From Marsupella aquatica (lineage: Eukaryota > Plantae > Marchantiophyta), in contig OZ316892.1 in NCBI GenBank assembly GCA_973895155.1, positions 8,613,580 to 8,677,579 of the forward strand: a stretch of DNA of 64,000 bases, given 5' to 3'. The first letter of the stretch is position 1. Each line of letters begins with the position of its first letter. Under the pieces are notes generated by a model that worked only from the letters and a program-made list of their open reading frames with translations, searched no databases and was not told where the DNA came from. The position numbers and the translations under genes are program-made. Shown here in pieces: positions 4,185 through 41,088 of the stretch.

Positions 4185-4452
4185 CTGACATTGAAAAATA
4201 AAAGTGTAAGGGCTAGTACTTGCAATTCAAAGAAACAAAGCATTTCTAATCAGAAATTCCAGTTATTATTCTATTTCATTTACATCCAGTCACTTACTCT
4301 CTGTAAATCTCAAAAATTTTAAGCATGCAACAGGCTCTCATCATTCACTGACATACAGTCACTCAATATGTTCACACAAATATTATTTTCCGTTAGAATA
4401 GAACACACAGGGCACATAATTTGCATTACTCACAGTTATTGACATCATTGCG

Positions 4453-16650: not shown

Positions 16651-17059
16651 ATAATGCACATAAAAATTTGAGTGACTTTTCAGTAAGAAACAAGAAAAAG
16701 TGAATCCCTCAAATAGAAAATTCAGATTAAAAGGTCATCCAAGAAGTGGTTGTTATGGAAGGCCAAAAATATAAGTTCTTGAGTTATATTAGATTCTACT
16801 CATAGATATTTTGTTTGTAACACCATATAAGATTTTGTTATCATCTTGAGATCTTGACTAAATTTAATTGTTTTTTGTGTATGGTAAAACTATATTTAAT
16901 TTTTACTTTTATTATATTTATGGTGTTTTGTATAATCCCCTCCTCAGAAAAAGGGGTGCATTATGGAGAATTAATGCACTCAAATATACAAAGAGAAAAG
17001 TCATGAAAGGCTTTATGGGCATGGAAATGGGTGCAAAGGAGCGTATTTTTTAGGTGCAA

Positions 17060-17289
17060 ATTTTGCCAAATTACACCTCCCCAAAAAAGTGTTTTCCACT
17101 TTTGGCTAGCATTTGCTAGATTTTTTTATGTCATTTGTCACTTTTCCACCTAAGCATGAACCCCATTGGCCAGAATCCAACTCTCATCCCTAAATCTAGG
17201 GATATCTGATGGCAGGATGTAATCCATGAAAATTTGACAAAGAATCTTCCTTGCATCTTTTCCCTTAGACGAGCTGACATTGGCCACAC
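17060..17289 (+). repeat. Dispersed repeat interrupted by the retroelement; continues at 27141-27165
   Basis: Aligns with the uninterrupted diverged copy at ~27750-27990 (ccccatt.gccagaatc.aac..tcatcc.taaatctaggga.atctgat...gacatt...ac.ctggc.aaaaa). Confidence 0.8.
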
Positions 17290-17648
17290 TGTCATGCCGA
17301 GGGACAGTGCCTCTTATGCACATCGGCATGTCCCTCGCATGCCCGCTAGGTATGTAGTTAGGGCTAGTGTACTACTTGAGTTAGCGACATGTTCTTATAG
17401 CAAATGCCAAGCGTTCTTGAAGCAAATGCGCTTGTTGGTGTGACGCCAGGACTTTGTTTACTTAGGGCATGTCTTTCTTTGTGGGGTTTTCAGTTCTTCT
17501 TGAATCGCTGTTGACAGAGCTCAAACAGTGCTCGTCGGTTCCGTACACGGGATTCACACAGTGATTCGTTAGATGCTCCCGGCCGATCTTGGCATTTCAC
17601 CGGTTTTCAATTCGATTTCAGTACGCTTGTTTCTCTTACGCCTTTTAT
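17290..17648 (+). repeat. Terminal repeat A1 (359 bp)
   Basis: Matches 26606-26964 with ~11 substitutions by eye. Confidence 0.97.
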
Positions 17649-17660
17649 TCAAGAAGAACT
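17647..17660 (+). promoter_or_regulatory. Self-priming (Tf1-like) primer binding site
   Basis: attcaagaagaact at the end of A1 is the perfect 14-nt reverse complement of agttcttcttgaat at 17492-17505 inside A1. No TGG-starting tRNA-type PBS is present. Confidence 0.75.
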
Positions 17661-19387
17661 CTTGAGATAGCAGTGAGGGGAAGAAGATTGCTTGTGGCGG
17701 TTTCGATAATTTATGGTGAAATCATTGCAATTTCTTCAACGAACATCGGAGCAACGAGTTGGAAGTTGTGGGTTTATGTTGTTATGTGTATATTTAAGTG
17801 TATACACATATCAATGCTCCCGAGGAGGTCCGGATTTCATTTTCTGGTTTCATCCCCTTTGCTCCTTCTTACTGTCACGACCGCTTGCTGCCTCGACTGC
17901 TTTTGGGGTCGTTTCGCATTCCCGGCCACGGCTACCGGCGAGTTTCCCTCGACTACCGCGCGATCACCTCGCGACTACCTCCCGAGCGCATAGAGCCACG
18001 GGTCCGTTTGCTTTCGCCTTTTTCCGATCGCGACCTACTGCCACCCAATTTTTCTTCCCGGCCGTTGTTTCTTCTCGCCTTCTCGCCTTCCCTCGCAGTT
18101 ATTGTCGCGAGCTCGAACCTGCCTGTGTATACAAATACGACATTCATTAAATTACCCCTGGGCGCGCATAGGGCCGCACGCCCGCCCTTTCGAGCTTCGC
18201 TCTTCCAGTCCTCCCGCACATAGGACATTGTGCCTTGTCTTAAAGGGGGTCCCGGTTTTCTTTTGCCTCCTCCAGGCCTCGTTCCAGGCCTCAACCTTCC
18301 GCTGCCAGCATTCATAGGGGGGAGATAGAGCCGAGGCAGCAGCGCAAGGAGTGGGCACGAGGCCCTATGCTACATTAAATGGAGGGGGGAAGTACATAGA
18401 CTCCTTCCCTCAGGAGTCCTTTTGCCAGGCAGTTAGGCACGGAGGCCTATGAAGCATTAAATCAGGGGGAGGGGGAGCGAGTGCCAGGAGAGGGCACAAG
18501 GCCCTAAGCAACATTGAAGCAGGGGAGGGGAGTACACTCGACTCCTCTCATGGGAGTCTTTTGCCAGGGCACTAGGCCCAAATTGCATTAGAGGAGAGGA
18601 GGGGGGAGTTCGTAGCCCTTTTCGGGAGCACATAAGATGGGGCACAAAGCCCTATGGAGGGCTCATGCCATTAAGAGGGCCCATCATTTCTGCTCTTTCG
18701 CCTCTTCCTTTGCCACCCGACTGTCAGTGCCCGATTCTCCCTTTTTCGGCTATTTTCCACCTCTCGACGTCTTCTTTCTCCCTGCCACCGGCCTCGGTGT
18801 ATACACATACGGGAGTGCATAGGGCCGCGTGCCCTCCCTACTCCCTTCGACACTTTTTCCGGACGCGACCTGCTTCCGGCCTAGTTTTCCTCCCGGTCTC
18901 GGTGTATACACATAAGGGAGGGACCTTTCCGCCATTTTTGTTGTATTATTCCTTTTTATTTTGACCCTCTTGGGCCGGTATACACATCGGGGCCAATTTC
19001 ATTCTCTTTGGCCCTTACCTCACGCCGTTTATTTCATTTGTGGGTTTCATTTCCTAGCCTTGGGGTTGTCACTCCTTTTCTTATCAGTTTCTTTCCCATC
19101 AGCACCCCGGGTTAGCATGCAGCATGTCAGCAGAGGAGCCAAGTCGTAGCAACACATCGCCACCGACACCCAGGTACCATTTACGGAGTGATCCATGACC
19201 ATTGGTGCCAATTTCATTGGAGTCTCGGCAATTTTGACAACGTCAACAGACAACAGCAGCACCCACACCACGCAACCCTTCTGTTACATTTGGCGGTCGC
19301 TTCACCACTACCCCAAAGCCTGTTATTGTTTCTTTGCCCTTTACTCCTTTTGCATCAGTGGTTGTTCCAGCTTCACCGACATACAGC

Positions 19388-21193
19388 ATGGACGCCAGCC
19401 ACTCATCTGGCTGCATTGAACGCTTCAGTGGGCGGCCAGGCACTGTTTCTTTGCGTGAGTTCAAATCCACTTTCTACACCGTCATTTACGAATTGGAGTT
19501 GAAGTACGGCAGCAATTTCACAAATGCTTTTGCATTTAAGCAACTAGCCAGGTATGTGCACCATGAGACTTTGGATGTGTATGAGCAGCACTCTCAACGG
19601 CTGCTTGCTGTCACACAATTGCCTAACCCTGCCTATGCCAGTGCAATTGCGGCAGCATCATAATTGGCCTTACAGAATGCCATTGCAGCCCATGCTGCTG
19701 CTCCTGCCACTTCCCCTCCTACTCCACTTCCTACCACAGTGCCAGTTACTCTCATTGTCTTGGCACAGGCTACATCAGGCATTTCTCCCACCATTGATTC
19801 CCCTGCCTTTGCTGATCCAGTGGCTGAGTTTTTCCAGGTTCTTGAATTGGAATTCCCAATCAAGAGTGCTGACAAAATCATGCAGTTGGCCACCTTTGTG
19901 AGGCAGCGCGATGAAACCTTGAAGATGATGTATCGTCGGCTTCTCAAGCTGAAGGAGGACACCCAGAGCATCACTGACCTGGAAGTTGCTCATCGCTATC
20001 TTTACGCATTGGAGGGCACACCAGCTCTCCATTCGCAAGTGTTGCAGCAAGTATTCTCAGAGTTTGGAGACAGCTACACCCTGCTCAATGTCTATGACAC
20101 TGCTGAGAAACTTGAGTTGGCCCATGCACATTATGAGGCCAGTATTGCACGTCCACCGCAATCCAGGTACCAGGCTGCTGCCCCTACACTGGCCACCCCT
20201 TCCCGTGTGCCACAGTATGGTTCCAAGACCAAGCCAGCCCATGCTGCTTTCATGCTGCCATCTTGCAACTACTGTGGTAACCCCAATCACAAGGCTAATA
20301 AATGTGATATTGTTGCTGAGGACCTGTCTTGCGATTTTTGCGGGAAAGTGGGCCACTTGGAGGCAGTTTGTTTTACCAAATTCCCAGAGAGGAAGCAGCT
20401 ACGACAGCAAACCCCTCCTCCTGCTCCTACTTCCACTCCCCCACCAGCTAGGAGGGCTCCTATTGCCTCAGTTGCTCCTCCTTCCAGTGGCAAATCACCT
20501 CGTGCCACCAAATCGCCCAAGCAGCCACGGAAGCAACCAGCTCAGAAGGAGGCTCACAACGCACAGGCAACTCAACTCCAGTCTCTGACTCATGAGGTTG
20601 AGTCCCTACATGCCCAACTTGCCAACATCAAAGGCAAGTCACCTGCCTCTATTGGTCCTTCTCAACCGGCTGGTCACGTGCAACCGATCCCTGGCCCAGG
20701 CATCACTGACAATTCAGCACCTCTACCCCGCTCTTTCTATGGCTTGCCATTTGATGCTCATATGGGTGAGTGTGTGTTGTCCTCTGCTACAAAGCCTGGC
20801 CTTACAGCAGAATTTTCAGATTCATTCTGCCCTTCCTATTTTGCTTACCAACAGGCTAGTGCTGCCTCCCGTATTGCTCCCACACGCCCCATTGTACAGG
20901 CTGATGGTCTTGCTGCTGGTCCTATGACTAGAGCCAGGGGAGCTCGGGCTGTCATGCCCCAATCTTTTCAGCCACTCACACTTGCTGAAGAACGCACCTT
21001 GTTGGTGAGGGGGGATGGAGCTGCAGCTACATCCATTCCACCACCAAGTGCTGCTGACATTTCACAGGGAGTTGTTTCTCTTGAGTTGCTTGAGCATTTC
21101 ACCTCCAGTATGGCACAAAGGATTCTTACAACTCCACTTTTCAGTTGCCATGATTTACAGCTGGATGCTAGAGCTGTCCTCAAAGCGCTATAG
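19388..21193 (+). pseudogene. Retrotransposon Gag with two CCHC zinc knuckles
   Basis: MDASHSSGCIERFSGRPGTVSLREFKSTF...; CNYCGNPNHKANKC and CDFCGKVGHLEAVC; in-frame TAA at 19661 and TAG at 21191. Confidence 0.9.
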
Positions 21194-21459
21194 GGTTCAC
21201 TGCATTCTTCATCAGCCCCTGTGATACCAGTTTTGGAGGTCCAATCTCATGTACATACTGGACCTTCTTCTTCTCCTTTACATGTTTCTGGTCCTGGCTA
21301 TGTTGTTGAGTGGAAAGACCATGGACACTAACTCCCTTCACAAGGTACCTCATCATTTGCCGAGAGTGGTGCCTAGTGACAGGACTTCAGTTTCCACCAC
21401 CATTGCCATTGTTGACAACAGGAATTCAATGGTCAAGTTGGAGGGTCACACTCCTCAGG

Positions 21460-21800
21460 TGGTCATGCTAGACACAAGTGCTTAACCAGTGATATTGGGC
21501 ATTCAGTTTGCCAAGAAGATGGGACTGTTGACTGATCATTTATAGCAATCCAAGTGGCACATTCGAACTGCTAGTGGCACTGTGGAGGATGTGCTGGGTG
21601 AGAGTTCTACTTTACTCACTCTCACTTTTAATGGAGGTACAGATCAGGAACTGCATTTCCCAGTCAGATGTTTGGTTACCAATGCCACTACGTATGATGT
21701 GCTCATTGGCCAGGAGGCTTTGTTCCCACCAGGTTTTACCATTGACAACTGGCATGAGCATGCATACTACAGAGTTGATTGGCATACTGATGGCTCACAC
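21460..21800 (+). pseudogene. Retropepsin-like aspartic protease domain
   Basis: VMLDTSA*PVILG (decayed D[T/S]G motif), IRTASG flap, YDVLIGQEAL; two in-frame stops. Confidence 0.8.
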
Positions 21801-22133
21801 TTGGGCTACATTCCACTTGATTTGCATGGTGCCCATACACCTATGGCTCACCACTGTGTGTTGAAAGCAGTGCACACAGCTACCGATGTCAACCACCCAT
21901 TGTAGGATTGGATTGAGGAGGATGACGATGAGGTGGCTGCTGCACATGCTGCTGCACGTATAGCAGCACTTTCCAACAACGTGGATCATCAACCAGAGTT
22001 CGTACAACGGCTCCAAGCAGCCCATGGACTTTTGGTGGCTGCATTGCGCAAGTTTGAAGACCTTGGGCAGCACAATGGACAGCCGATAGCCCCAATCTTG
22101 AGCGCACCAGTTACATGGACTCCTGCTCCGGAT

Positions 22134-23070
22134 GGCCTTACATTGCTTGAGCTTTTTGGTGGCATTTCTATAGGCCCGGAAGCTCTCCTACAGTCCGGCA
22201 TGGTGGTGAAGCAGTACATCTACGTGGACATTGATCCAGGTGCAAGGCAAGTGGCTGAATCCCGTTTGCTGGAATTTTCAGAACGATTTCCCCAGCAGTT
22301 TCCACACAATGCATGGAAGTCTGCATTTTCTTTCTTCCCTCCAGATATCCAGCTTGTCCAGCACCGACACTTAACCCTTCTTGGTTCCCTTGATTTGATC
22401 ATAGCTGGTTGGGAATGCCAAGGGTTTTCAGCTGCTGGTCATGGTGTTGGATTGCATGACTCTTGTTCTAGCCTTTTCACAGCATTGGTTCAGATTCTCA
22501 CCTGGGCTCAATCCCTTTATCCTGCTGTTGGTTATATCATTGAGAATACTCCATCTCAGTTTGACCAGCGTCCACAGGTCAAAGAGGATTTCAGTGTGGT
22601 CCAGCACTACTTGGGACCACCCCTTCTCATTGATGCAGTGCACTGTGGTTCTTATGCACATCGTCTTCGTAACTTTTGGACTAACCTTGCACCACCTTCC
22701 TTGTTGGAGTTGGCTCTTCACCACACATCCAGGGACACTAACCTCACAGTGGACCAGATTTTGGATCCTGACAGTTCTTGCCAACCAGTTACACAGCAAG
22801 AGCCAGCATCTTGGTATCCAGCCAATACCATTGGACAGCCCCGTGCTGCTTGGCCTACATTTGTATCCTTTCCAGGTGCACATGCTTTTTAGGGTGATGG
22901 TCCTGGCCTGGTTTTTTGACATTCTACCGGTACATGGGATGAACCTAGTCCTGAGGAGAGAGAACGGGCTATGGGCTTCCAACCCGGTACTACAGGTCAC
23001 ACCAAAATCACCAGGTTGGCCAGGAATGCTTTACTTGGCAGGGTAATGGATCTCAATGCTCTCACTTGGC
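22134..23070 (+). pseudogene. DNMT3-like C5 DNA cytosine methyltransferase domain embedded in Pol
   Basis: Motifs in canonical order: I LLELFGGIS, II YVDID, III PDI, IV DLIIAGWECQGFS (catalytic Cys), VI YIIENT, VIII DAVHCGSYAHRLRNFWTNL, IX EERERAMGFQPGTT, X TRLARNALLGRVM. Same frame as PR and RT, with TAG and TGA stops at ~22890-22920. Confidence 0.92.
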
Positions 23071-23439
23071 TTCTGGTCACTTGCATCCTTTTTCAGATGT
23101 ACATTCATTCAGCATCCGGAGTTCCAGCCCTACCACTCCATGGTGCTGTTACATGGCATCCAGACCAGGTGCACTTACCTCTATTCAACACTCATCGCTT
23201 CAGTCCAAGTGTTGGGGGGGAGGATGTCCCTTGTAATGTGGCTGACATTATTTCTGAGTTTCATGGTGTGGACCAACCCAGATCAGCAGGTACAACAGGC
23301 CTTGGAGAGGCCTCATCACCTTATCAGCAGCATGCTAGCAGCTTGGACAATAGAGAGGCTAGCACTTCTGGTTCTTCAAGCATGAGTACATCAGGTCCTA
23401 TTCCTAGTGTTTCCAACTACACATTCATCATGGGCAACC

Positions 23440-24780
23440 ACCTGAGTAAAAGACAGAAGGACCAGCTGCTGAATTTGTTCCTCAAGCATGAGAATGTGTT
23501 TGCTTTCTCTATGAAGGACTTGGGTAAGTGCAAGACTATGCAGTTCTCCATTGAGTTGGCTGATGAAACACCTATCTTCAGGCGGAGACACCGTTTGAGT
23601 AAGCATGAGTGGCAACTAGTGGAGGAGAGGTGCCAAGAGCTCTATGAAGCTGGTCTTATTCAGCCATCTACATCAGATTTTGCAGCAGCTACAGTGATGC
23701 CAGCAAAGAAGGATTCCAGTGGATTGTGGACAGAGAAGCGCATGTGTGGGGACTATAGGCCATTGAACCTGGTCACACCCCAGGATAGGTACCCCATGCC
23801 GCGGCCAGAGGAGCTATTTGACAGCATTGGAGACTCAGACATCTTCACTCTTGTGGATCTAAGGCAAGGCTTCAACCAGATTTTGCTGCTTGCAAAGGAT
23901 CGCAAGAAAACAGCTTTCCATGGTAGTAACCAACTATGGGAGTGGTTGGTGATGCCATTTGGCTTGAAGAATGCGCCCATATTCTTTCAAAGAGTCATGG
24001 ACCAGGTTCTGCAAGGTGCTGAGTTTTTGAAATGCTACATTGATGATGTGTTGGTCCACAGCAAAGGATTTGACCAGCATCTACTTGACCTTGAGGAGCT
24101 ATTCATGAGGCTTAAGAAGGTGAACCTAAAGATACACCCCAAGAAGTATGAATTTGCTGTCAGATCAGTAGTATACCTTGGGCACCGCATTCTTCCAAAT
24201 GGAACCATGGCTCACCGGGCCAAAGTGGTATCCATCTTGGAAATGCCCACTCCTACTGATGTTCACACTCTTAGGAGCTTTATTGGGTTGTGCAATTACT
24301 ACCGGATCTACATCAAAGATTTCAGTACCATTGCACATCCATTGTACTCTTTGTTGAAAAAGAATGTGACTTGGACATGGAGTACAGATGCTGAGGCAGC
24401 ATTTGCCACTTTGAAGGAGAAGCTCTCAGAATACCCGGTGCTTAGAAGACCTGATTTCATTTCAGCAAGGTCTTTGTGCTACACACAGATTGGAGTACCC
24501 TTGGGATTGGTGCCATTCTGGGCCAGCATGATGAGGAAGGTAAAGAGTACGTCATTGCCTATGCATCCAGGAGCAACAATCAGGCAGAGAGTCATTATTC
24601 TTCTTATGAGGGTGAATGCCTTGCTGTTGTGTGGGCTATCATACATTATAGGCCCTACCTCTATGGGACCAGGTTTGTCCTCTACACCGACCACCAGCCC
24701 TTGAAGTGGTTGATGACCAACGACAAGCTTATTGGCAAGCTTGCTCGATGGGCGCTCATACTCATAGGCCTGGTGTGACA
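23440..24780 (+). pseudogene. Reverse transcriptase and RNase H
   Basis: RMCGDYRPLN, DLRQGFNQI, MPFGLKNAP, YIDDVLV, LRSFIGLCNYYR; RNase H HTDWS..YEGECLAV..YTDHQPL. A 5-bp duplication (atttc, 24454-24463) causes a frameshift, and there is an apparent short deletion near 24760. Confidence 0.97.
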
Positions 24781-25099
24781 CATCAAAATGCTGACACTAT
24801 GTCTCGCAGCCCTTTGATTGCCTCTAATGATTCCTCAGATGCACGGCAGGATTTTGACCAGGTTTCCATCCTGCCTACATTTCATGCATCTACCTATCTT
24901 GCTTTGCTGCCATGCTACGTTGTTGACCAACCTGTGGTGGACATATGGGAGGACAACGACACTCTGAGATTTTTGCAGCATGGGGAGTACCCCATACATG
25001 TTACTGCTGCCCAGAGAGACCGAATTCAGCAAAGGTCCAAGCGCTACTTGTGGAAGGGAGATCATCTCGTGCGCTGCTTGCCAGACAGGGAAGTGGTGG

Positions 25100-26180
25100 T
25101 TCCACCCATTCATGAGAGGGTTGGCCTTATCCGTAAGGTACATTCTGAGCTTGGTCATTTTGGTGTTAAGAGGACTTACAGCCTCTTGGTCCCTCATTAT
25201 CATTGGAGAGGCATGCATGGCCAGGTTCGAGATGTTATTGCCCGGTGTGAACAGTGTGATAGGGTGAGGACTTCTTTCACATCTCGGCAACCCACACTTC
25301 ATCCACTCCCTATTCAGGGCATGTTTTATCGCTGGTCATGTGATTTGGCTGGAGAATTACCCCTCACGTCTCGGGGTAATCTCTACATCATGATCATGAT
25401 AGAGCATTTCTCCAAGTGGATAGAACTTGTGGCATTTCCGGATAAGACCTCCCATAGCACCAGCCAGGCATTCCTACAACAAATTTTCGGCCGCTTTGGA
25501 GCTTGTGCAGAATGTCTCACTGACCAGGGCTCAGAGTTTAGAGGAGAGTTCCAGGAGCTGCTTGATCAGGCCCTCATTGATCATCGCCGGACATCACGAG
25601 ATCACCCACAGGCAGATGACTTGGCAGAGCGCATGGTTAAGACATGCAACAAGGGCCTCCGGAAGATCTGCCTCACCAAAAACAAGGAGGATTGGGACCT
25701 GGCCTTACCCTACATTGCCATGGGGTATAGGATGTCCAGACATGCATCACTGTCTAACTTTTCTCTCTACTTCTTGTTGTTTGGTCGTCACCCAGTTCCA
25801 CCTTCTGCTATTGCTGCTCACATGCTTTAGGTGGTAGACTTGGATTCAGCTGTGACTTGGTCTGATGTGATCTCTGAGAGGGCTGCCCTATTCAGGAGGG
25901 TTATGCCCATGGCCATGGAGAATTTGGCCATTGCACAGCACAGGGACACACTACGTTATGCACACACACGAGGGGGCACTTTTCAGCCCAAGGTCAGGAA
26001 GTTTGATGTGGGAGATTTTGTGTACTTGCAGCGGCAAGCTAACGACACCCTGGACACCTCTACCAGTCGTACTATTCTCAGGGTTAAAGCTATTCGACCA
26101 TCTGGAGTGCTAGAGTTACAAGGGGCAGATGGGCGCACAATTGCAGACAATGCCAAGAATTGCGCCCCTTGTCATCTGCC
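25100..26180 (+). pseudogene. DDE integrase
   Basis: HHCC (HSELGH...CEQC), catalytic WSCDLAG / LTDQGSEF / LAERMV, C-terminal VGDFVYL; TAG at 25828. Confidence 0.96.
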
Positions 26181-26235
26181 TAACCTGGATCCCACCATTA
26201 TGACTTCTACTTGGATTCCACCTGTGGACTACCCT

Positions 26236-26388
26236 TGCAAAGTGTGTTTGTGAATTGATGATGCTGACCAGATGCTGCTGTGTGACAATTGCAATGGAGG
26301 GTACCATCTTTTTTGCCTTCGGCCTGAACTTACCCAGGTGCCAGAAGGGTTATGGTTTTGCCCTTCCCGTGCTCCACGTGCTACCTGA
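26236..26388 (+). pseudogene. PHD finger at the integrase C-terminus
   Basis: CKVCL*IDDADQMLLCDNCNGGYHLFCLRPELTQVPEGLWFCPSR: C4HC3 spacing with the conserved Trp; last Cys position is Arg (cgt). In frame with the integrase. Confidence 0.9.
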
Positions 26389-26420
26389 ATTTTCTTCAGC
26401 CCTCCTTTTGGATGTGGTCT

Positions 26421-26427
26421 GGGGGGG
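26421..26427 (+). promoter_or_regulatory. Polypurine tract (G7) immediately before B1
   Basis: ggggggg directly abuts atacagagg, the first bases of B1. Confidence 0.7.
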
Positions 26428-26603
26428 ATACAGAGGTTTACACCTCCACTACGTACATACCACTTCATTTGCTTTTTCTTGGCACTTGTGAATGTGATTG
26501 GACTTTTTCTATGCATGTTGGTTGCTAGCAGCTTGCACATATGCCTTGCCGGTGACTTATATGTTTTCGATACACTATGGCTACGATACTATATGTCACG
26601 ACA
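26428..26603 (+). repeat. Repeat B1 (176 bp)
   Basis: Matches 26965-27140 with one substitution; ends tgtcacgaca. Confidence 0.97.
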
Positions 26604-26605
26604 AC

Positions 26606-26964
26606 TGTCATGCTGAGGGACAGTGCCTCTTATGCACATCGGCATGTCCCTCGCATGCCCGCTAGGTATGTAGTTAGGGCTAGTGTACTACTTGAGTTAG
26701 CGACATGTTCTTATAGCAAATGTCAGGCGTTCTTGAAGCAAACGCGCTTGTTGGTGTGACGCCAGGACTTTGTTTACTTAGGGCATGTCTTTCTTTGTGG
26801 GTTTTTCAGTTCTTCTTGAATCGCTGTTGACAGAGCTCAAACAGTGCTCGTTGGTTCCGTACTCGGGATTCACATAGTGATTCGTTAGATGCTCCCGGCC
26901 GATCTTGGCATCTCGCCGGTTTTCAATTCGATTTTAGTACGCTTGTTTCTCTTACGCCTTTTAT
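26606..26964 (+). repeat. Repeat A2 (359 bp)
   Basis: Copy of 17290-17648, separated from B1 by the dinucleotide ac. Confidence 0.97.
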
Positions 26965-27140
26965 ATACAGAGGTTTACACCTCCACTACGAACATACCAC
27001 TTCATTTGCTTTTTCTTGGCACTTGTGAATGTGATTGGACTTTTTCTATGCATGTTGGTTGCTAGCAGCTTGCACATATGCCTTGCCGGTGACTTATATG
27101 TTTTCGATACACTATGGCTACGATACTATATGTCACGACA
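26965..27140 (+). repeat. Terminal repeat B2 (176 bp)
   Basis: Copy of 26428-26603, joined directly to A2 (..ccttttat|atacagagg..). Confidence 0.97.
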
Positions 27141-27289
27141 ACACTGGCTAAAAATTAAAAAAACTTAAAAAATAAAGTGGTGTAAAGGTTAGTGTTGCAT
27201 GGTGTAAACCATGATTTACTAGCTAAATATACGTGTTTTGCACAAGATATGTACTTGAGTATATATATATATACTCTCGCCAAAGATAT

Positions 27290-27610: not shown

Positions 27611-28235
27611 GATAGCCATTGCTAAAACTGTGGGAACATTCTATTATTTTCTGTGCAATGCACGCGTATTACAAAATAGAGAGGAGTAGACAGAAAAGAA
27701 AATCCAGAGAAAAGGATTCCAGGCCAGCATTGTTTTAGTGGCCAAAAAGTTTGCCAGATTTTGCCTCTCCAAAAGCTTACGCCACTTTTGGCAAAAAAGT
27801 GCTAGTTTTTCTCTATCTCATTAGCCACTGTCCCACCTAATCACAGACCCCATTAGCCAGAATCTAACAGTCATCCTTAAATCTAGGGAGATCTGATAGT
27901 CAGGAAAGTATTCCAGGGAAAATCAAATAAATAATATTTTGAGCATCTTCTCCTTTACGTAGTAGACATTCACAACTCTGGCAAAAAAGTAAAAACCTTA
28001 AAGTTTACACTGTTCCAGGCTACTTCCTATTCCATGCTACGTGCTGTTCATCTTGTCCCCATCCCTTTTTTTGGTATGCATTTTCACTTTCAGTTAGAGC
28101 CATCAATTAGAGTCATGGTCTAGAGTCCAGTTAGAGCCCTCAATTAGTCACGGTCTAGAGTCTTCACATTAGGCGGGAGGCCCGAGGAGTAGCTTTTGAT
28201 TTGTGCTTTATTGATTGGATTCACCACACTTGCTA

Positions 28236-29650: not shown

Positions 29651-31726
29651 CTGCAGAGTTGTGGTCTACAAGGACTTTACTGTAGTTTCATTGTATGTTC
29701 GTTAAAAAGTTCTTTTCTAGGCAGCCAAAAAGAAAAAGAAAACCAACTGCGTGGTTTCTAATCTCTAGCCTATTCAGCTCCACTACATTACCACAAAACC
29801 AGCGAAGTGGTCCTAATGCCTAAGCCCATTTAGCTTCACTGCATCACCACACTGTTCACCTCAAATGGTACTACTGCGTTTATGAGGCCCCAAATTTTGG
29901 TGAAACTATAATTGATGTTAGTAACATTTTTTGTCAATGACTGGGGAATAGTCTATCCTTAACTTAAAACTCCTCACAACATACCCAGAGACAAGCAGTA
30001 CAAATGGGGGCAAAGGTGGCCTCCAACTTCAACCTGGCACAATTCACGAAATTGAAGCTCAGAGAGACAACGATGTTGAAAAGATGCTAGGCTGGACTGC
30101 AGAACCCCACATGGACCATTCCGAAACATAAATCTTACTTAGATTGGTGTGCTTTGGATACATGCTCACCTTGTTGCGTGTCAAAAAGCTTTGGGTCCAT
30201 CAGAGTCCTTAGGCAAAAGGTTGTGATCAATCTGAGCAACAGCTTCAACATTTCGAGGAAGGGGAGGCACAACCACTACGGTAGGACGTGATAGGTAAAA
30301 AATGGTGGTCCGTCCAAAGCATGAATGTCCAGCTCTAGGAAGAGAGGTGCAGCAACCGGGAAGTGTTCTTGTTCTCAATGAGCTATGCAGAAGATAATTC
30401 AGTGCAAGGCCAACGGTACCATAACGATGAGGGCTGGCTTCTTCCAATCCAGTAGGTAGAATGGATCGGATGCAGCATGGGCGTCCCAAATTCAAAAGCT
30501 GGCAGCAGCAAGACGGTCAGACCACTTCTGCCTAGAGAACTGAAAAGAGGGATCACGACAGAGACGCTGTCATGCTGGTTGGGCGGCAGGACCAGAATGC
30601 AGATCTACGTCCTCGTCCACATGCACAATTCTCGACCACAACACCCTTTCCAGTATGGAGTACCTTCCACCAAATGTTCATGCCCACTTTCATCCGTGAA
30701 CTCCCCTCTCTTTCTACTCGCCTGCTTTTGCAGGCAGAGGACGCCTTGTCTCTCCTCTGTCCTTCAGGTATGCCATGTGTTTTAAATGGGCGATGTGTCC
30801 CTTATGCCAGGGTTTGCTACTCCCAATAGAGCTTCATCATGTAAACAATCTTCAAGACCTGCCAGTTCGAAGGCAAAGATTGCGTCACATTCCAGAGAGT
30901 GACAAATATAATAACTAAGCAGCAGCCGACAAGAACTAGTTGAGAGCAATGTTTCGTACTGCAAAAGCGAACGAGAAAATCCAGGAGAAGGGAAACTGTT
31001 CCTGACAGAATTTTGTTAACTTAACACCAATACACTTCATGTGCCTGGGACTGACCAACTTACCCTGAGAAGCATGAACCTGATACAATATGGATTTTTT
31101 TAAGATGATGTCCGCTGAGGCTACCTGTTGAAACATGAGAAACAGGAAGGAGAAAGTATACGCTCCTCGGAATATTGGATCAGCCGCAAGCCCTGTTATT
31201 TCTTTGACAATATGACTCTTCAAAATTTGGAAGGAATGACCGCCTCCCTTCAAAGGATTTATATCAATATCTACAGTTCTATCTGAATAGGACACACACA
31301 ACCCCCCCCCCCCCCCCCCCTCCCCCTTCAAAAGAAGTACACACACCGCCCTCGCCAGTGCAAACCTATCAACCTAAGCTACTTCTTAGCTTACACACTT
31401 GTTGCAGAATGAATGTCATCCTGACTAACAAATGCCTGAGTTACAAGATGCGACCAAAACCGTTTAATAGTACTTTATCGCAGCCCCTAAAAATTGATGG
31501 ATCAAAATTCCATTTCTGTGCTTCGATGCCTCTTTTGTACAGGCTGTAGGGATAGGCACATTGGCTACCCTTGTTTTGAAACGTCCACCCCGATTCCCCA
31601 CTTGTTCGCTATACTTTGAATCTTGAAATTCCGACCCTGTCCGCCCTGTCCACCCTGTCCATTCTGACGTACACCATTGCAATGTAAGCTACACTTTTCG
31701 TCGAGTTACTTTTGATTAAACCCGCG

Positions 31727-34700
31727 TCAATGAGATGGACGATTGAACTTGTGAGGGTGCTCTATGACCATTACCATCCGACCACATGCCTGCAGAAAAT
31801 TGTGATGCTCTTGGATCTAATCTTAAAGAAACCAACCGCCACAGAAAACTTTACAAAAAGCAAAAAGCTTCAAAACTTCCTCGAGGAAGTTATCTGAAAT
31901 AAATTTCATAACCCTAGCACGCTGTCTTTCTCGAGGTGAGACCATCGTGATGCACATTTCTTGATATAGTCATGAGATAGATAGGAACCACTCAGTTACC
32001 TGCATTTTGTCTGCCATTAGATACGCCAACTCTGCTTTCAATTTCGCCACTTCCAGCCGACCAGTCTGCATCAAGGTCTCAATATGCTGAGTAGCTTTCT
32101 CACAGATGGCGACCTGCCATGGACAAAGGAAATTTTTTAAATCATCCTTTTCAACAATTCCGTCAGGACATTCAACTGCAAGGACAAACAATCAGGAACA
32201 CCAAACACTGGCACGGCCAATTTCATGTTGGAAGTCTTGATTTCAAGCCAACTTCACTAAAAGAGAGAACGAAGAGTTATGACAGCAAATCACCACCTTC
32301 TTGGTACGTAACAGCAGATATTGAAGAAAGAAATTGTCCAGCAGGACTAGAATCCGTTCTACGAGCTTCCTACCAAGACCATGGATGGGTCAAGCAACCA
32401 GCGTATACATGTCCATGTGGCAAAGACACCACATACCACTTCGAAGTCCTCTGTTGGTAAGCCATCCAGCTCAATCAGGTTTGAATCTTCTGATCCTCCA
32501 ATTTTGTAAAGGGTATTTATCATCAATCTAAATTGCCTGGTGCCATTCACACCATACATAGAAGGGATAACTTTAGAACTCATGGCAAATATCAGGAACC
32601 AAACTTTACTTAGTGAGCTAGTTTTGGCAGGACAACCTGAACTGTTGTTCAATTTCCCACTCGGGACACATGCTTTAATGAACGAAAACCTGCAAGAAAA
32701 GAAAGAAATAGTCACCTTTGGGATTTGAAAAATGCCCGAGTCAATTCTGTCTCACATCTGGAATTACCCGAGGGAACCATAGAGTCCATAGGGAGATGGA
32801 CAGAAAGCATCCCAGAACCAACGTTACCGGTATTCAGGGTTTGTGGGAGCTCCGATCTGCAGTGGCATATTCACAATCGCAACTTAGTTCTAGCCAGCTC
32901 AAGTGAGATCACACTTCACAAATCCACAGACAGTCTGTTTGAGCTCTCCTATGAATTTGAAGGAATAATGGCCAGACAAGCTTTGCAAAAATAACACAGC
33001 ACTAAAGATAATCCGCTAGGAACAAAGGCAAGATAATGCATACCTTGAACCTGACAAAGGCTCTCTGAAATCAGGAGTTATGTGTTGTCCATTCCCCACA
33101 TCCATAGCCTGATATAATGCCGGACTCTCTTCTATAACTTGCTCCGTGAATATGTCCCCGCCTCTAAGTTCACCATTGGCTGATACTGGTGGTGATAGCA
33201 GGTCTCGTTCGGCCGGGTCGGATGACACTGATGATCTATGCTCCGGCACTAAGGTGGCTACGGGTTGTTGATGCAACTCACACGTTTGCTGTGATGCATC
33301 AGGCAAAGCAGAGTTGGGAGCCTGGAGTAAAACTGGAGTAAAGGTAGTGTTTAGAGAGGGTGGGAGACCTGGTGAAGGTGGTGTAGGCATAGGGATAATT
33401 GCAGCAGAAAGCATTTCTCCCGAACCCAAGCTATTTCTATGATCCAATTCCTGGGTTGAAGTCGATTGATCGCAAGCTGTCTGAGGTGCAAGACCTCCTC
33501 TGGAAATCCTATTCCTGTTCACCGCCGAAGCTTCATGAAAACCACTAGCCCGACCCTTTCCTGAGGATGAGCTGATTCCCTGAACATACCAGGAAATAAA
33601 CAAAGCGGGCATGTCAAGCAAGATATGCCATGGCCACCACACATGCACTTATACTTCTCCCAAAGTGTATAGCTTGAAAACTCCACATTGTGAATAGGCT
33701 CAGTGGAGTAAATTGATCTTGCTCATAACACACGTGATATTCCAAATACATTCCATACTTATTACTTCACTATTCGTACTCAAATAAGTGCAAAATCCAT
33801 AGGCATTCTCCTAATTAACAGCTTGGGATGATATGAAAGACGCAAACCAAACTGCTACTGTAGACGGAATTCTGTCTCTTGCCTTCCGCTGGGACAGCTG
33901 AGGATCTCCAGGGGTTCTTCGCCTGATAAGCTCTCTTGAAAGAGAGACAAGGGACTTGTCAACAGCATGTGGTTGTGAAGCCTGCACAGACACGATCTCC
34001 CTAAGATATCATAGACAAAATAATCGTAACCCCTCTCTTACAGATAACAACTTTTCAAAAAGAAGAAACACAGAGCTAAATATGGCAGAAACCTGCAATT
34101 CTTTCAGCCTTTGCAAGGAAGATTTCGAAGCTGCTCCTAATCGACGTGAGTTCACCAACGTATTCAATGAGGGGCCCACACTGGCTTCATGACCACGCAG
34201 GTCCCCATTAGATTCAATAGCGGGTTGCTGGACATCGGATGAGGCAGAAGTATGCGTAGTACGACGAGGCGCACGAACTCGTGGCATCACTGTTTCTTCT
34301 GGGTTACCAACACTGTACGAAGAAGGTTCGTCCCGCTCTTCTTCAGCAACATGCCCGTTCGCTGGGGCATCCATAAGCAGCAATACTTCCTGAGGTTCTT
34401 CTGATTGAACCTAACAAAGAAATGTCCACGAAGGCAAATTCAATCAAATAAACACGAAGAAATAAACACAAATATCTTTCAAAACATCGAAATGTGATTA
34501 TAGGACCAAACTAGGAAAGACAACTACCTGAAGTGGAGTACAATATCTGTCTACTTTCTCATGGGAGCGACAACAGACGCAATTCTTGCTATGCAACGCT
34601 CCCACTAACCTGCCGAGTTGAAAGAGGAACAGCGATTTCCCTATCTTTCTCCTTGCGGGACAGCTCCGCCTGCGCTTTTTCCAGCTCTCTCATTGTTTCG

Positions 34701-37700
34701 TTGTGCTTCCTCAAAATTTCACTTTTCTCAGCCAGCAAAGCAGCATATTCCTGACCAAATATGCACAAAAGACTCCTTCGGTTAGACTAAAACCGTGTTC
34801 AAGGTAGCTACCCATGCATGTTGCTATTGCAATCAGAATTTTACTTCATGACTGAGGATTAAACGATGAGCAACCTTCTGGGCGATTTCTCCCCTTGCGG
34901 CCTGGGCTCGCACTTCCTTTTCCAGTGCTTCCCTCTGCCTTTCCAGCATCTCCTGATTATCCTTGCTCGCAGCCTCCTAAGACAGGTGAGCTCTAAGTTA
35001 GACAACTCTGGAGAAAAAAAAAGGAAGCGCATTGGAGGTTTACCAGAATGGCCGTTAAAAAGTCAAGACTTGGAAGGTTTCTGCATCAAATAATCAACTA
35101 CGCTCCCGGAGCCTTCTTCGAGAGACATCTTGCAGTTTCACAAATTTCTCTAGGGAATCCAAATCAGCCGAAAATTCACACGAATTGTACTGCAAATTAC
35201 CAAACGCTGACGCTTTCTTTCTGCCTCTCTTTCCTTTTTCTCTCGATCGTACTCCCGTTTCCGTTCCTTTCTTCTTTCGATAATCTGTAGGAAAAAAAAT
35301 TACAATTTTGCCTGTACTACAGATTCTGTCGCTGCACAGATGAGGCACGGTCTAGCTATCATAAAACCTCCAGAAACACCTTCGAAGCTCAGCAAATGAA
35401 GTGTTTCCAGCCATCCGACGTGTTTAGCAAATATCTACTCAAACGGCATCATGATCCAAATATAATAACTCGAAGTCCAGCTTGTCACTGTGTCCACGAA
35501 ACCTCCTAGATTACCTCATGTTTTGCTGATTGGTCCCATTCTTGCTCAGGCTGCTCATGGCTTCTAAACTGGATATCTGGATGATACTCACAGTACCTGC
35601 GCAGCATACAAATTCATAATACTTAATGGGTTTTCAAGAAAGCAAAACTACAACCCCACACCATCCTCATTACTTGAAAGTGGCTTCCTAAATAATCCAC
35701 AATCTGTATATCCTCTTTAGTAGGACACAGCACCTCGGTAGATCTCAGAATGTATCCGTTTCACAACATTGTCCAATCATCTGTTATGATTTTGTAGGAT
35801 TGAAGCGACCCGCTTAGCTTCACCTCTAGTTAAATATCAGATTATTTCCTTGGCATACGACGCCAAGGAAAATGTAAGTGTAGGTCCGACTCAACACGTA
35901 ACTCCCGACAGGTCTTGTTTATATAAGATCTGGAATATTCTACTCCAACCATGGCAGCTGGTTCTCCTTGTCGGATCCCCACCTGAGACATACCGTCCAT
36001 TAACCTAACCATTGTAAAACTCTGCAGTGCATTTCACGGGATTGGCTTACCCTCGACTAGTTTTTCCTGGTAATCAAGATCACACTCACTCTCGTAATTT
36101 TCCACTTGGCTGTTACATATAAGCACTGATCAATTTGATCTCGAAAACACTTGGCGTAAAGAAATCCTGGATGAAGACATCTACGAACAGATAGATACTG
36201 GAGGCATGCAAGAGCCCCAACCTGGCATACACCCAGCCAGCTACCTACAAGGATCACTGTATGGTCTCAAACAGTCCTGCCTATAGAAAGAATGTAAAAT
36301 TGAACTTCGCAACCAATGACATCGAGCTGCAAGGACGCAAGACTAACCATATATCTGGCAAAAATGAAACATCTGTGCCATGGGGCAGGATGCGCCACTT
36401 CAGACATGCTGGATTGTCACATTGAACCTGCAAATCAAGAAAGACAACACAAGAGCTCGCGGTCATAACGCGGAATAACAAGCTCCATCAGCAGAAACCA
36501 GACGTCTCAGGGCATTTCGTCGAATCAGGTCAACAGAATCGGATTAAAATCAATGAACGGTGATGTCAAACCGATTCAGAACACATACAATAAAACACCT
36601 TATGTTCAACACAGATCCAGCCGTTTTGGTACTTTTTGACGGCAAGCAAGTTGGAAACAAGCATTAAGAAGAAAGGTGAGTAAGACGGAAAGTACCCAAA
36701 TAACATCAGGGACATCCTCTGGAATGGATGCAGTGATACCACGTCTAGATGCTTGCGAATCCAGCTGCAGTAGTGGGACTTGAACCCGCTCTTTCTTTTC
36801 CCACCTGGAGAAGAGAAGAAGTATCCACAGCATGAATATCTTCTCAAAATATGAGACCGCAGTTTAAGACCTACAGGAGCCTCTTCGCATCTCAAGTCCC
36901 CGCAATTTTACAACCAAAGCAGGACAGTCAGAACTGCTATGCTCCCACCCACCAGTACTCAGCCAAGACATCTGACAGCTTCTTCAACAAGCGTCGATAT
37001 GCAGTCGTATCATCAAAATCCTGCAATTCAAGACACGGGTTTCCAATATTGAGAAGAAGACAAAAATGGTCTGTTTTTGCAGGGCAGGTAAAAGGACCAG
37101 GCAATTTGGCAAGATACAAGCTATACTACTGACATAATAAAAACTAAACTGCCAGCAAACAGGCCTTGTGATGCAGATTCTTCTACCAACTTTTACGGTC
37201 TTTACCAAGAAAGGATGGTATGTCATGTGGTACTTAAAAGTTTCAAAGCAACACTTATTATCTATATTCGCCATGTTTTGGAGCAATTAGAGACCTGCTT
37301 GTTGTGTGTAGGTTGCAGGAAATCAGCCTCAGCTAACCCAATGACACCCATGCCCCTCTCGTTCTCTTCCAGTTGCATACCAACCTGTCACATAATCAGA
37401 TTCGAAGATAAACAAAATGGATACTAGCCGAAACAGCTTTTCATTTCACAAGAAACCAGACAAGAGTAAGAAAAGGCGGTCCTTACCCGCATGTAAGCTT
37501 TGATCAGTCGATTACGATGATAAAGCATCATGCCATAAAGATTCTTGTTTTCAGTGTTGAACCTGTAGACAAATCAGTAGATGGCAATGGAACAACCATG
37601 CAACATGAGCAAGAGCAGAATGTGAACGGCCATCCACAGGAGCAAGAAATGCATCCTCTCAGAAGATATGATATCTTTGCGAGATGGTCAAAACGAAACG

Positions 37701-40700
37701 ACTAGCTAAATGACTCCAGAATCACTTACCCCAACTCAATCTTTATTTGCTCTGACGTCCCAGCCGGCTTGTAGTATTCAGTTTCCTTCAGACTGAGAAT
37801 TCCAGCTATCCTCTTTGTCTTCACTTTCTTATCCCTTTCACAAGATATTAAGGAATAATCAGTTTCCATTGCAACCAACAACGTATCCTGTCACAAACTT
37901 GAGCCAAACTTCTGACTCTTTGACTGTAGGCAGAAAATGGATTCTACCAGAATCGCAGGCTAGCTGCGGACGGGCTACAGGTGATAATAATCCTCTTATC
38001 AGTACACTGTCAAAAATGTCAACTTATAGCAAATTTTGACGTTTCCTAGGATACAGATTCTAGACATTGAGCAAAAACAAATCATGTATTTGATGAGGGA
38101 GACTTGCAGTTGATGTACAAACAAGTATGCTTGCAACATTAAGGAGCTGGTTTTGATCAAAAACAGACATTTTGACGCAGGTAGTTGTGGCTGTACATAA
38201 CAGTCTGAATAAGGACATTAAGCTCCAATCTGGATCCCAAACAAATCATACTCGACCAATAGCTTACAACTGCTCAACGCGACATTCAGTAATTCTAGTT
38301 CTTCGATTACGTACGAGGACATGAGGAACTCAAGGTTTTATTTGAGAAAAATGAGACCGGTCCTGGAAGAGTCACTTTTTCTCTACAAAAATCCTAGAAA
38401 GGACTGCAGTGATTGAAGTTTTACAAAGCACCTCACGATATTATCCGAGAAGATTGAGGATGCTACTGCGTACGTCGCATTTTCATTGAAAAAACCCCGA
38501 TAGAGATATAACCAAGAAAATTCAGTTCGTACATTTCATGAGAATTTCTCCTTATATTCTCCAATTGTTTTCTAGCATCAACTGCCATTTAATTCGAGAA
38601 TAGTATGACTTAAACGTGAGAAGGTCACAGCAGGTGGAATTCACAATTGCATTACATTTCTCATCTTGAGAAAAAATAACAATCTACCCGAACGCAAAAC
38701 GGACGATAAGAAGAGTAGGGAGAATACAGTCAACTCCAGAGGCCATTCTCCTGTAGTACATCAGCTCTCAACTGACAAACATCGGGTACTTGTAAGAGAT
38801 TCAATTACCTAATAAAAATCTGCATCCTGGGCACTTTGTATAGAATTGAAACATACGCCCGAAGACTGTAGTCCATAGGAACTTCAGTGGTGTTGGGCTG
38901 GATCATCAAAACAGGGCCCGTCATCAGACTACATAAACAACCTAATTCGGTACGTGCGCAGGTTACCAAGGGTCAGAAGCAACAAATGCATTCACCCCGC
39001 TGCTCTAGACAAATTTCATAGCAGCTTCTGATTTGTGTGGTGCGTCAGGATTCGGAACAATCCATGCCTTCAGCGCTAACAGTTTTTTCCTTAATTCTCG
39101 ACATACCTGTATCTGTTCTGATGCTGAGACTCACAACTTCAGGGCTAACCGAGGACGCTCTAGTGTAGTATGCACACTTTTATCCATCTAGCTCCCTTCG
39201 AATACACGAGAAGACCCGTGGCAATCTAATCTTCAGTACACAACACCCACTACGATTGTTTACGACCTTTGGCCAGATATAGAACTTACCTGATTTGGAC
39301 GAAGCTGCTGAAAGTGAGATGAGTTGATTTCAGAAGTTATCCGTATGTCATGTGGATCTGTTTTAAAGTCCAGCTCGAGTACCCCTTCATGCTTTCGTAA
39401 ATTGGATATAATTAGGATCTGACAGAGCAACAGAATATACACATGTAAATGAACCAGAGTTTAGACCCGTATTACAAAGTGTTCAAAAAGTCAAATAAAC
39501 ACCATACAAAACATCAATTCACCTAAAAACCTTATGCAGGAGAGATTCCGTACTGCGCCTGTGACAGGGATAGCCTCCAGTTGTGCCAGCAGACTCTCCT
39601 CGTCCGGAAAGATCGAGTAGTTACATATAGCCCTCAGACTTTCCTCAATTTCTAAATCATACGGGGATAGACGGTCTATTTTCCAGTTAAGGTTATTTCT
39701 CCATGAACCAAGGATCCTGCTTTGGGTCCAAAATTGGCATAGTATGCTGGAAGATGTAAATCAGTGCAACTAAGGGCTGCTAAACCCAACGATTTGGGCA
39801 TGTTAGCCGGCATCATACTCAAAAGGATACTTCCATTTAAGTCCCATGACACTTGTGGGATAAGAATATCTTCAGCTCCTGTGTCACCCTGTAGAACAAT
39901 TTTCGTCCAACAAAACCTTAAAGAAAAAGCTCCAGCCTTGCCAGTTCTAAAGTCCGTATCAAACCCCAACAAAACCGAGAAAAAATAAAATGAGCTACTA
40001 TCCATGAAAATGGGTTTATGTTTGCATCCAATTACCAAAAATGTTTGTGATAGAAATCCAGCTGTCATGCTGTCAGCGCACTTTGTCAGTACAAGGACAT
40101 CGCTCCCCAATCGCATTGTTCCTGACTGTACACAAAAAGCGCACAACAAACCTAATCAGTCACGCTCGGGTCGAGATATCCACCTTACTGTTAGATGTCT
40201 GAGTTGGTCTCGAGACGCCACAGGGTTTTACCAACCGAGCATCACGATCAACTACCCATCCACGGGTCTAAATTATCTCTGACTCCGGGACTCCTGGTAC
40301 AGGACTGGAACTAGTTTAGACGTCCTTTTCCGAAACATATTTGTGCAAGGTGCTTACCTTGAAGCCATTGCCATGCTTCCCAATCGACCTGTCTCCAGGA
40401 GCCATTTGCTGCCATCATCAGAGATAATAACGGTATCTCAGAGACCAAACACAAGTAAGTTATCCGAGAGCTCATGGGGATTCAAAACGACTTTGAAGGA
40501 TTTCTTAAGATCAGCAAAACCTAGGATGGCTTAAGCATCCAATGGAACGAACCTTTTTGGAATGTCCAAAACTCAACATTTTGTGGAGCTTCTCCGGAAG
40601 TAAACCACACCCATTGTCCATAAAGACTAGGCATGGCTGGCCGTTGAATTCCTTCATGTCAATGCAGAATTGAGATGCACTGACATCGGGATCAATGGCA

Positions 40701-41088
40701 TTGTCGATGAGCCTACAATATAAACCACCCACATAGGTTCCAAGGACAACACGCTAGTCACTTTCACAGAATTTGAAATGCTATCTCAGAAATCCGTGCT
40801 CGAAATTGATGAACAAAACACTCGGATACAGAAGTCCGGAAGCTTGAAGGAGTAAGTCCGTTGAAGGAAACGGTAGTTAAAAGTGAAACGCGGGTCCTAT
40901 CAGAGAAGGTTGTATATTTTATGCGGCATTTAAAGAACAGAGTATGACGAAATTACAGCGACGAGCAACTATCGTTTTAAAACATACTCAGCAATTGCGC
41001 CAAAGACCCATCGATGGCTGGTGCTGTTGCTGTGCAGGAACTTTGGATGAGTCGTGCAATGCTTCACATGGTTGTAAATGTCCACCAT
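31727..41088 (-). CDS. MORC: MORC-family GHKL ATPase with S5 fold, CW-type zinc finger and coiled coils (>20 exons; 3' end tentative)
   Basis: MVDIYNHVKHCTTHPKFLHSNSTSHRWVFGAIAE / LIDNAIDPDV..FMDNGCGL..MLSFG / IGKHGNGFK / SGTMRLGSDVLVLTK..GFLSQTFL / DYSLRAYVSILY / GMMLYHRNRLIK / GVIGLAEADFLQPTHNKQ / DFD / PDVIW-VQCDNPACLKWRILP. Confidence 0.93.

Follow-up and report, generated by a model that had tools for sequence, protein, structure and literature searches.

A decayed Ty3/gypsy retrotransposon with a DNMT3-like methyltransferase domain in the liverwort Marsupella aquatica, and split end repeats that suggest insertion from a circular DNA form

Main finding

A stretch of 64,000 nucleotides (nt) of Marsupella aquatica DNA (Marchantiophyta; assembly GCA_973895155.1, contig OZ316892.1, positions 8,613,580 to 8,677,579 of the forward strand), hereafter the window, was found to contain a Ty3/gypsy retrotransposon of 9.85 kb (17290-27140) whose polyprotein carries a DNMT3-like C5 cytosine methyltransferase domain. 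The order of the coding parts is Gag-PR-DNMT-RT-RH-INT-PHD (PR is the protease, RT the reverse transcriptase, RH stands for RNase H, INT for integrase and PHD for a PHD finger). It is well supported that the domain is a conserved part of a large bryophyte Ty3/gypsy family, and the rearranged end repeats suggest that the element was inserted from a circular DNA form. The window copy is dead: Gag, PR, DNMT, INT and PHD are each interrupted by one or more stops, and the frame is shifted at three places. The favoured reading, which is held to be moderately probable, is that of a dead Ty3/gypsy element with a DNMT which would have primed its own reverse transcription, inserted from end-joined complementary DNA (cDNA) cut inside the long terminal repeat (LTR), and methylated its own new DNA.

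The DNMT3-like domain

PR, methyltransferase and RT share one reading frame (21381-24464, +), with in-frame stops at 21483, 21543, 21903, 22890 and 22917. The main methyltransferase motifs span 22143-23048, between PR and RT, and stand in non-permuted order, as follows.

22134..23070 (+), DNMT3-like C5 cytosine methyltransferase, from motifs I-X, Pfam, PDB sequence match and fold; stops at 22890 and 22917
22143, motif I, LLELFGG
22221, motif II, YVDID
22344, motif III, DIQLV
22404, motif IV, AGWECQ
22536, motif VI, IIENT
22656, motif VIII, AHRLRNFW
22962, motif IX, ERAMGF
23031, motif X, LLGRVM

The original prediction, made from the sequence alone, of non-permuted motifs in frame between PR and RT is borne out by this order and by the shared frame. 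A DRM identity was ruled out by the position of motif I before motifs IV, VI, VIII, IX and X, which excludes a circular permutation. In the Pfam scan, for which the two internal stops of the domain were written as X, DNA_methylase was matched over a short stretch only, at 24.6 bits against a cut-off of 22 (E 2e-5), and the check proposed with the prediction, a search of the stop-corrected translation for this family, was thereby passed.

The top match to the domain by sequence in the PDB was DNMT3A (E 6e-6), against E values of 0.13 for the DRM-type structure 4onq, which we take to be DRM2, and of about 0.16 for M.HhaI. The AlphaFold2 model of the domain, based on a 46-sequence alignment, had a predicted local distance difference test score (pLDDT) of 94.6. 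When this model was used as the query, DNMT3A/B ranked first in Foldseek over the whole domain (E 4e-18), and alignment of the predicted fold to DNMT3A by VIA-align gave Z 29.4 and a root-mean-square deviation of 2.5 over 270 aligned residues, the nearest non-DNMT3 structure being 4dkj (Z 25.5). The resemblance to DNMT3 and not to the permuted DRM enzymes, noticed at first in the motifs, was recovered by all three comparisons, and the assignment of the domain as a DNMT3-like, non-DRM C5 methyltransferase is supported.

A Pro-Cys dipeptide is the norm in motif IV of the C5 methyltransferase family. The window copy reads G-W-E-C there instead of G-x-P-C, and DNMT3A reads GSPC in the PDB sequence match. 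Among 157 domains compared, the motif IV Cys and the motif VI Glu are invariant (157/157 each), and the two Arg of the motif VIII Arg-x-Arg are found in 156/157 and 153/157; the window copy has all four of these residues. The residue before the catalytic Cys is E in 90 of the 157 domains and P in 57, the window and bryophyte copies reading EC.

Family, distribution and phylogeny

The domain search returned 188 proteins, and among the 120 matches listed the named ones are those of Calypogeia fissa (C. fissa; 76%), Sphagnum compactum and S. magellanicum. Gag-PR-DNMT-RT is encoded in a single frame in C. fissa CAM6101866.1, and open frames of the same order were found in P0201 (C. fissa) and P0139. 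The expectation that a land-plant family would extend the algal and dinoflagellate precedent was upheld by these relatives in Calypogeia and Sphagnum, and the host gene neighbouring the element is likewise nearest to Calypogeia.

In a metagenome scan, 39 loci were selected for the DNMT domain; PR before and/or RT after the domain was found in 35, while two loci are internally deleted, one holds the domain only and one is of an RH-DNMT type. Absence from sibling copies, which had been named as an objection to the original prediction, is thus at variance with what was found. For most of the loci, similarity is greater with the Sphagnum proteins than with the Calypogeia protein, in alignments of unequal length. 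Contig depth, a measure less affected by the selection of loci for the domain, is similar over DNMT and over RT in three of four runs (X1, X2 and X4) and is hundreds of times the depth of the unique flank, these ratios being rough and not a copy number.

Further polyproteins were added by a profile search; the profile included the RNase H and integrase flanks, and its 747 matches at 1e-30 are not counts of methyltransferases. Sixty sequences held both a long RT and a DNMT. The DNMT stands after RT in 55 of them, mostly between RNase H and integrase, and before RT in five. The named members with the domain on the RH side are the chlorophytes Tetradesmus deserticola and Scenedesmus, and those with the domain on the PR side are Klebsormidium nitens GAQ93235.1, Closterium and Calypogeia. 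In the tree of 157 domains (midpoint root), the PR-side group forms a 26-member clade that includes the Klebsormidium domain with a FastTree support of 0.99. K. nitens GAQ93235.1, which reads Gag-PR-DNMT and is 36% identical in the domain, falls inside this same clade with the window element; identity to the chlorophyte domains is slightly higher (38-39%). The DNMT and RT trees agree in part (12/19 strong RT splits in common; Spearman 0.66). The simplest reading of the family history would be that the domain was captured once, long ago, changed its place in Pol once and was then inherited along the streptophytes.

Viral contigs gave 73 loci with weak partial matches to ordinary methyltransferases only (best E 2e-10). 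A single contig from prokaryotic genomes was matched, L113, and reads as a eukaryotic element. This algal-type retrotransposon contig lies inside a bacterial metagenome-assembled genome, probably through bin contamination. About 30 of the RH-type polyproteins (P0009, P0220, P0278, L113:3061-9516 and others) have a tail of 300-500 aa after the PHD finger, with a DP(F/W/C)xG-like motif in eight of those checked and a Tudor-like match in some. Such a tail possibly represents a domain like that of an adenine methyltransferase; together with the DNMT3-type enzyme, these elements would then be dual-methylase ones.

Selection and CpG content

The ratio of nonsynonymous to synonymous substitution (dN/dS) was estimated approximately between the window and a set of 24 loci, taken from the 39 without near-duplicates or the RH-type one, and for the Gag tail with four loci. 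The values were 0.09-0.21 for DNMT, 0.09-0.18 for PR, 0.04-0.09 for RT, 0.23-0.49 for the linker between DNMT and RT and 0.74-1.12 for the Gag tail. DNMT is thus like PR, above RT and below the linker and the Gag tail. Neutral evolution, another objection that had been named, does not agree with these values, and across the aligned coding sequences the DNMT domain reads as family-wide and under purifying selection.

The observed/expected (o/e) ratio of CpG at codon borders is 0.12-0.22 in the element and 0.09 in neighbouring open reading frames (ORFs) resembling Mutator-like elements (MULE). CpG depletion was therefore rejected as evidence of self-methylation, the loss in the neighbouring transposon being no weaker. 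CpG is kept in the LTR pieces and the 5' leader (17290-19387 and 26427-27140; o/e 0.77-0.98), the coding body having an o/e of 0.10-0.37.

Element ends and split repeats

Self-comparison of the window gave the layout A1-body-B1-A2-B2, with the following features.

17286..17289 (+), 5' target-site duplication, ACAC, identical to the four bases at 27141-27144
17290..17648 (+), repeat A1, starting TGTCATG, 97% to A2, contigs exiting into unrelated flanks at its start; probably the 3' part of U3 with R and U5
17492..17505 (+), predicted self-primer at the putative RNA 5' end, a 14-nt complement of 17647-17660; 12/12 in 0/200 shuffles
17649..17660 (+), predicted primer-binding site (PBS) of non-tRNA type (no TGG), complementary to a stretch within A1
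26420..26426 (+), G-run abutting B1, putative polypurine tract (PPT)
26427..26603 (+), repeat B1, ending CACGACA, one difference from B2 in 176 nt; putative 5' part of U3
26597..26612 (+), internal junction of two attachment (att) sites, CACGACA-AC-TGTCATG, with a 2-nt spacer
26606..26963 (+), repeat A2, from the self-comparison
26964..27140 (+), repeat B2, ending CACGACA, its border with A2 being the putative end-to-end cDNA joint
27141..27144 (+), 3' target-site duplication, ACAC

The A and B repeats of the window had no blastn match in the repeats of its relatives, and a sibling's repeats were therefore used for the survey of loci. Contigs of four runs exit the repeat into unrelated flanks at the element start, at 26603 and at 26606. 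About 10 distinct insertions in the relatives' loci carry B-A-B at their 3' ends. An exact 4-bp target duplication is present in six of the seven elements with both ends (the window element, L011, L016, L022, L024 and the solo A-B of L025), and three of four bases agree in L019. The L025 unit (L025:16115-16596), with its exact duplication, is the equivalent of a solo LTR. The CA-NN-TG spacer is 2 nt in every B1/A2 junction read, the two att sites standing head to head, and the G-run lies no more than 2 nt from B1 in 15/15 loci examined.

Complementarity between the sequence after A1 and a stretch that lies 170-205 nt inside A is 12/12 in five of ten 5' ends and 11/12 in two. This complementarity was reached by at most one of 200 shuffles in the 12/12 cases, and by 5 and 11 in the 11/12 cases. 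As a control, the sequence after A2 gave 8-10/12 in nine. Both partners of the pairing differ between the window and the Sphagnum-like loci, with the complementarity kept, and the primer duplex is stable in folds of L019. In the five elements that have two copies of A, the A2/B2 border is offset by -1, 0, 0, +1 and +1 nt. In L113, a distant element of RH-DNMT-INT order, the contig ends in CACGACA-GC-TG and a G-run lies about 115 nt ahead of this end, which suggests that the split-repeat layout is old.

Proposed replication and integration cycle

The true LTR is proposed to be B + junction + A, because B is preceded by a purine tract and A is followed by a primer site. The RNA would start inside A1 near 17493 and end in A2. 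As in Tf1, minus-strand synthesis would be primed by the first 11-12 nt of this RNA, base-paired to the site that follows A1, and the G-run would prime the plus strand. Standard reverse transcription would then give a cDNA of the form (B-A)-body-(B-A), the ends of which would not be att sites, and the joining of its two ends would create the A2/B2 border. The integrase would make a cut, staggered by 2 nt, in the CA-NN-TG junction of the left LTR. The resulting ends would be ordinary CA-3'OH ones with 2-base 5' extensions, and the opened molecule would be inserted as A-body-B-A-B with a 4-bp duplication, possibly at chromatin to which the PHD finger may guide integration. Variation of the A2/B2 border by up to one base fits end-joining.

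The methyltransferase would be packaged in Pol and would methylate cytosines (probably CG) on the cDNA or the circle, and new copies would arrive marked in a host-like manner or repressed. The chances are about even that the target of the enzyme is the element's own cDNA, by analogy with the argument made for SymbioDIRS-Dnmt3. A wider reading is put forward tentatively, its probability being well short of even: that a green-plant clade (chlorophytes, Klebsormidium, Closterium, liverworts and Sphagnum) has shifted its att sites to the middle of the LTR, integrates as a routine through two-LTR circles and carries an active E-C DNMT3 enzyme which methylates the circle, a long-lived intermediate, and by which one att junction is perhaps distinguished from the other. 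The circle route was proposed in 1984 and was rejected for retroviruses.

Alternative explanations

Several observations weigh against self-priming, insertion through joined ends and self-methylation. Cutting of the left junction only is left unexplained by the proposed cycle. Three of ten 5' ends are without a significant primer complement, and in the window the primer duplex was obtained in short folds only; in longer folds a downstream hairpin takes its place. The A2/B2 border variation could be explained by later mutation. A-B-A before gag was found in none of the surveyed loci, in which contigs cannot separate A-B-A-body-B from the normal junction; three distinct loci stop at B1, without A2-B2; and at L037:690-745 about 35 nt of the B end and junction stand ahead of A, in an internally deleted copy ending at B1. 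As to the enzyme, E instead of P before the Cys may reduce catalysis, and no methylation of yeast DNA was obtained with the Klebsormidium domain, an outcome regarded by its authors as inconclusive (PMC5890265). The dN/dS values are rough, because synonymous sites are near saturation (median proportion of synonymous differences, pS, 0.69), and among the decayed loci themselves the median dN/dS is 0.44 for DNMT, 0.39 for RT and 0.60 for the linker. There is no specific sign of self-methylation, because the CpG loss is matched by the neighbouring MULE-like ORFs.

Integration without a covalent circle would give the identical A-body-B-A-B product with the 4-bp duplication, if the integrase cut the junction on linear cDNA and inserted both halves and host repair joined the free A and B ends; linear DNA is also what retroviral integration uses (PMC11054761). 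This course would presumably leave a chromosome double-strand break at every insertion, and the joints are near-precise (no more than 1 nt in 5/5 elements), for which it is considered unlikely. Replication like that of PAT or Ngaro would need no LTR cycle: the RNA would extend into B2, and the split repeats would serve as templates for the two ends. In its favour stands the repeat order A1...B1-A2-B2, found also in Ngaro, PAT-like and VIPER elements (PMC6681497). The Pfam scan of the element frames gave a DDE integrase and no tyrosine recombinase, however, and the 4-bp duplications, the purine tract and the primer site are exactly where an LTR of B + A predicts them, so that such replication is very unlikely.

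The methyltransferase fold might instead be retained for binding (of DNA or S-adenosylmethionine, or in marking one junction for the integrase) or for action on RNA, and not for catalysis on DNA. This is rated as rather unlikely. It is in keeping with E for P in 90/157 domains, with the negative yeast result for Klebsormidium and with a CpG loss that is not specific to the element; the Cys, the Glu and both Arg, on the other hand, are almost invariant across 157 divergent domains, and DNMT3B likewise failed in the same yeast test (PMC5890265). A one-off capture of a host DNMT3 fragment, or repeats arising from nested insertion or misassembly, might be thought of for a window copy broken by stops and frameshifts. 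Its probability is close to nil, and it was ruled out by the family loci, the repeat survey and selection: the domain has the same position in 35/39 loci and in the Calypogeia, Closterium and Klebsormidium proteins, it is under purifying selection, and B-A-B recurs in about 10 distinct insertions. Self-priming with insertion from end-joined cDNA is accordingly retained as the preferred account of the element.

Other parts of the window copy and neighbouring sequences

The remaining coding parts of the window copy are as follows.

19388..21330 (+), Gag with Cys/His knuckles, 55% identical to C. fissa P0201; stops at 19661 and 21191, frameshift into PR near 21200-21330
21381..21900 (+), aspartic protease, broken; gag-asp_proteas E 1e-5, below cut-off; stops at 21483 and 21543
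23430..24464 (+), reverse transcriptase; RVT_1 E 1e-27, YIDD at 24036
24464..24775 (+), RNase H; RT_RNaseH E 1e-36, bounded by frameshifts near 24455 and 24775
25100..26220 (+), DDE integrase; Integrase_H2C2 E 2e-13 (25141-25257), rve E 1e-12, D..D-35-E core 25339-25638; stop at 25828
26230..26385 (+), PHD finger at the C-terminal end of Pol; PHD E 1.5e-10; stop at 26251

The copy is not of great age, A1 and A2 differing at 11/361 positions and B1 and B2 at 1/176. A 74% repeat stands on either side of the element (17058-17267 and 27746-27957). The element sits inside another repeat, as the left flank is itself of high depth in contigs. At 840-4226 (-) there are three long ORFs with strong CpG depletion and without a Pfam match, which we assume to resemble MULE/SWIM transposase, and at 47221-50356 (-) there are decayed fragments like those of long interspersed nuclear elements (LINE), with a weak zf-RVT match at 49889-50356.

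An intron-rich MORC ATPase gene with a CW zinc finger lies at 31568-41088 (-), about 4.4 kb from the element. In the exon search, a single relative, from C. fissa, was found among 53 candidates, and another exon is 90% identical to it. Compared with C. fissa P0202, identity is 79-100% over the short exons that align cleanly and 61% over the long exon of low complexity (33037-33582). By this resemblance to one species, the exons by themselves point to a leafy liverwort other than C. fissa as the likely host. MORC proteins act in transposon silencing, and the adjacency of this gene to the element is probably due to chance.

Novelty and significance

The kind of element is already known, and its host range and the integration anatomy described here are new as far as the literature searches reach. 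By these searches, which had subscription papers, figures and some supplements outside their scope, no report of Gypsy-DNMT3 in a land plant and no mechanism for the split repeats was retrieved. DNMT3-carrying retrotransposons are extended from one alga to land plants, at high copy number, and the host methylation genetics available in land plants can be used to ask why an element carries the silencing enzyme of its host. The cis-element anatomy offers a concrete and testable explanation of the DIRS-like repeats in KnitGypsy-Dnmt3, and a natural case for integration via joined cDNA ends. LTR finders that seek two full terminal repeats would be likely to miss such elements or to set their bounds wrongly. 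If a circle-integrating clade with an active enzyme is real, hundreds of mobile de novo methyltransferase genes would be present in bryophyte genomes.

Comparison with known systems

The precedent of DNMT-bearing retrotransposons, which had been cited in the original prediction, is found in de Mendoza et al. 2018 (PMC5890265). That paper describes KnitGypsy-Dnmt3 of Klebsormidium nitens as having Gypsy domains, a non-rearranged Dnmt3 domain placed with Dnmt3 in the phylogeny, a Ka/Ks (the nonsynonymous to synonymous ratio) of <0.2 and repeats 'the same as a DIRS retrotransposon'. The window element is assigned to the same kind because every defining feature that could be compared was found in it: a Dnmt3-type domain in a Gypsy Pol, intronless, with DIRS-like split repeats and purifying selection. 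GAQ93235.1 is presumably KnitGypsy-Dnmt3 itself. The two differ in that the window family is in land plants and much larger (rough contig-depth ratios of hundreds), in motif IV (GWEC in the window element, GFPC in Klebsormidium) and in the C-terminal PHD finger of the window element, the word PHD being absent from the main text of PMC5890265; in the parts of that source consulted, neither a target duplication nor an att junction is described, nor is a primer or a mechanism by which the repeats arise.

As a Ty3/gypsy element, the window copy has the order Gag-PR-RT-RH-INT, a DDE integrase, TG...CA ends, a short target duplication, a PBS and a PPT, and it departs from the type in having A...B-A-B instead of two full terminal direct LTRs, a departure common to it and KnitGypsy-Dnmt3. 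The A1-body-B1-A2-B2 layout is like that of Ngaro, PAT-like and VIPER elements, which, according to PMC6681497, encode a tyrosine recombinase; the window element instead encodes an integrase of the DDE type and is bounded by TG...CA termini and a 4-bp duplication. In Tf1/Sushi elements and the plant Tcn1 (PMC4600332, PMC6317226), the PBS is described as complementary to an LTR-internal stretch and not to a tRNA. The same was found here, in 7/10 5' ends at 11-12/12. Those elements have ordinary LTRs and chromodomains, and the window element a permuted LTR, a DNMT and a PHD finger.

C5 methyltransferases are likewise borne by EpiLTR retrotransposons (bioRxiv 10.64898/2026.05.21.726589) and by SymbioDIRS-Dnmt3 (PMC5890265). 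The EpiLTR DNMTs are described as DNMT4-related and paired with DAM, and the text seen of that preprint names 'streptophytes (Gypsy-DNMT3)', with no land plants named in it. SymbioDIRS-Dnmt3 is a recombinase element, reported to methylate CG in yeast, and methylation of its own cDNA was argued in the same paper. To the catalytic domains of DNMT3A and DNMT3B (PDB 6f57, 6kda), the window domain is alike in motif order and whole-domain fold; it differs in being about 26% identical, without PWWP or ADD, intronless, embedded in Pol and with E before the catalytic Cys.
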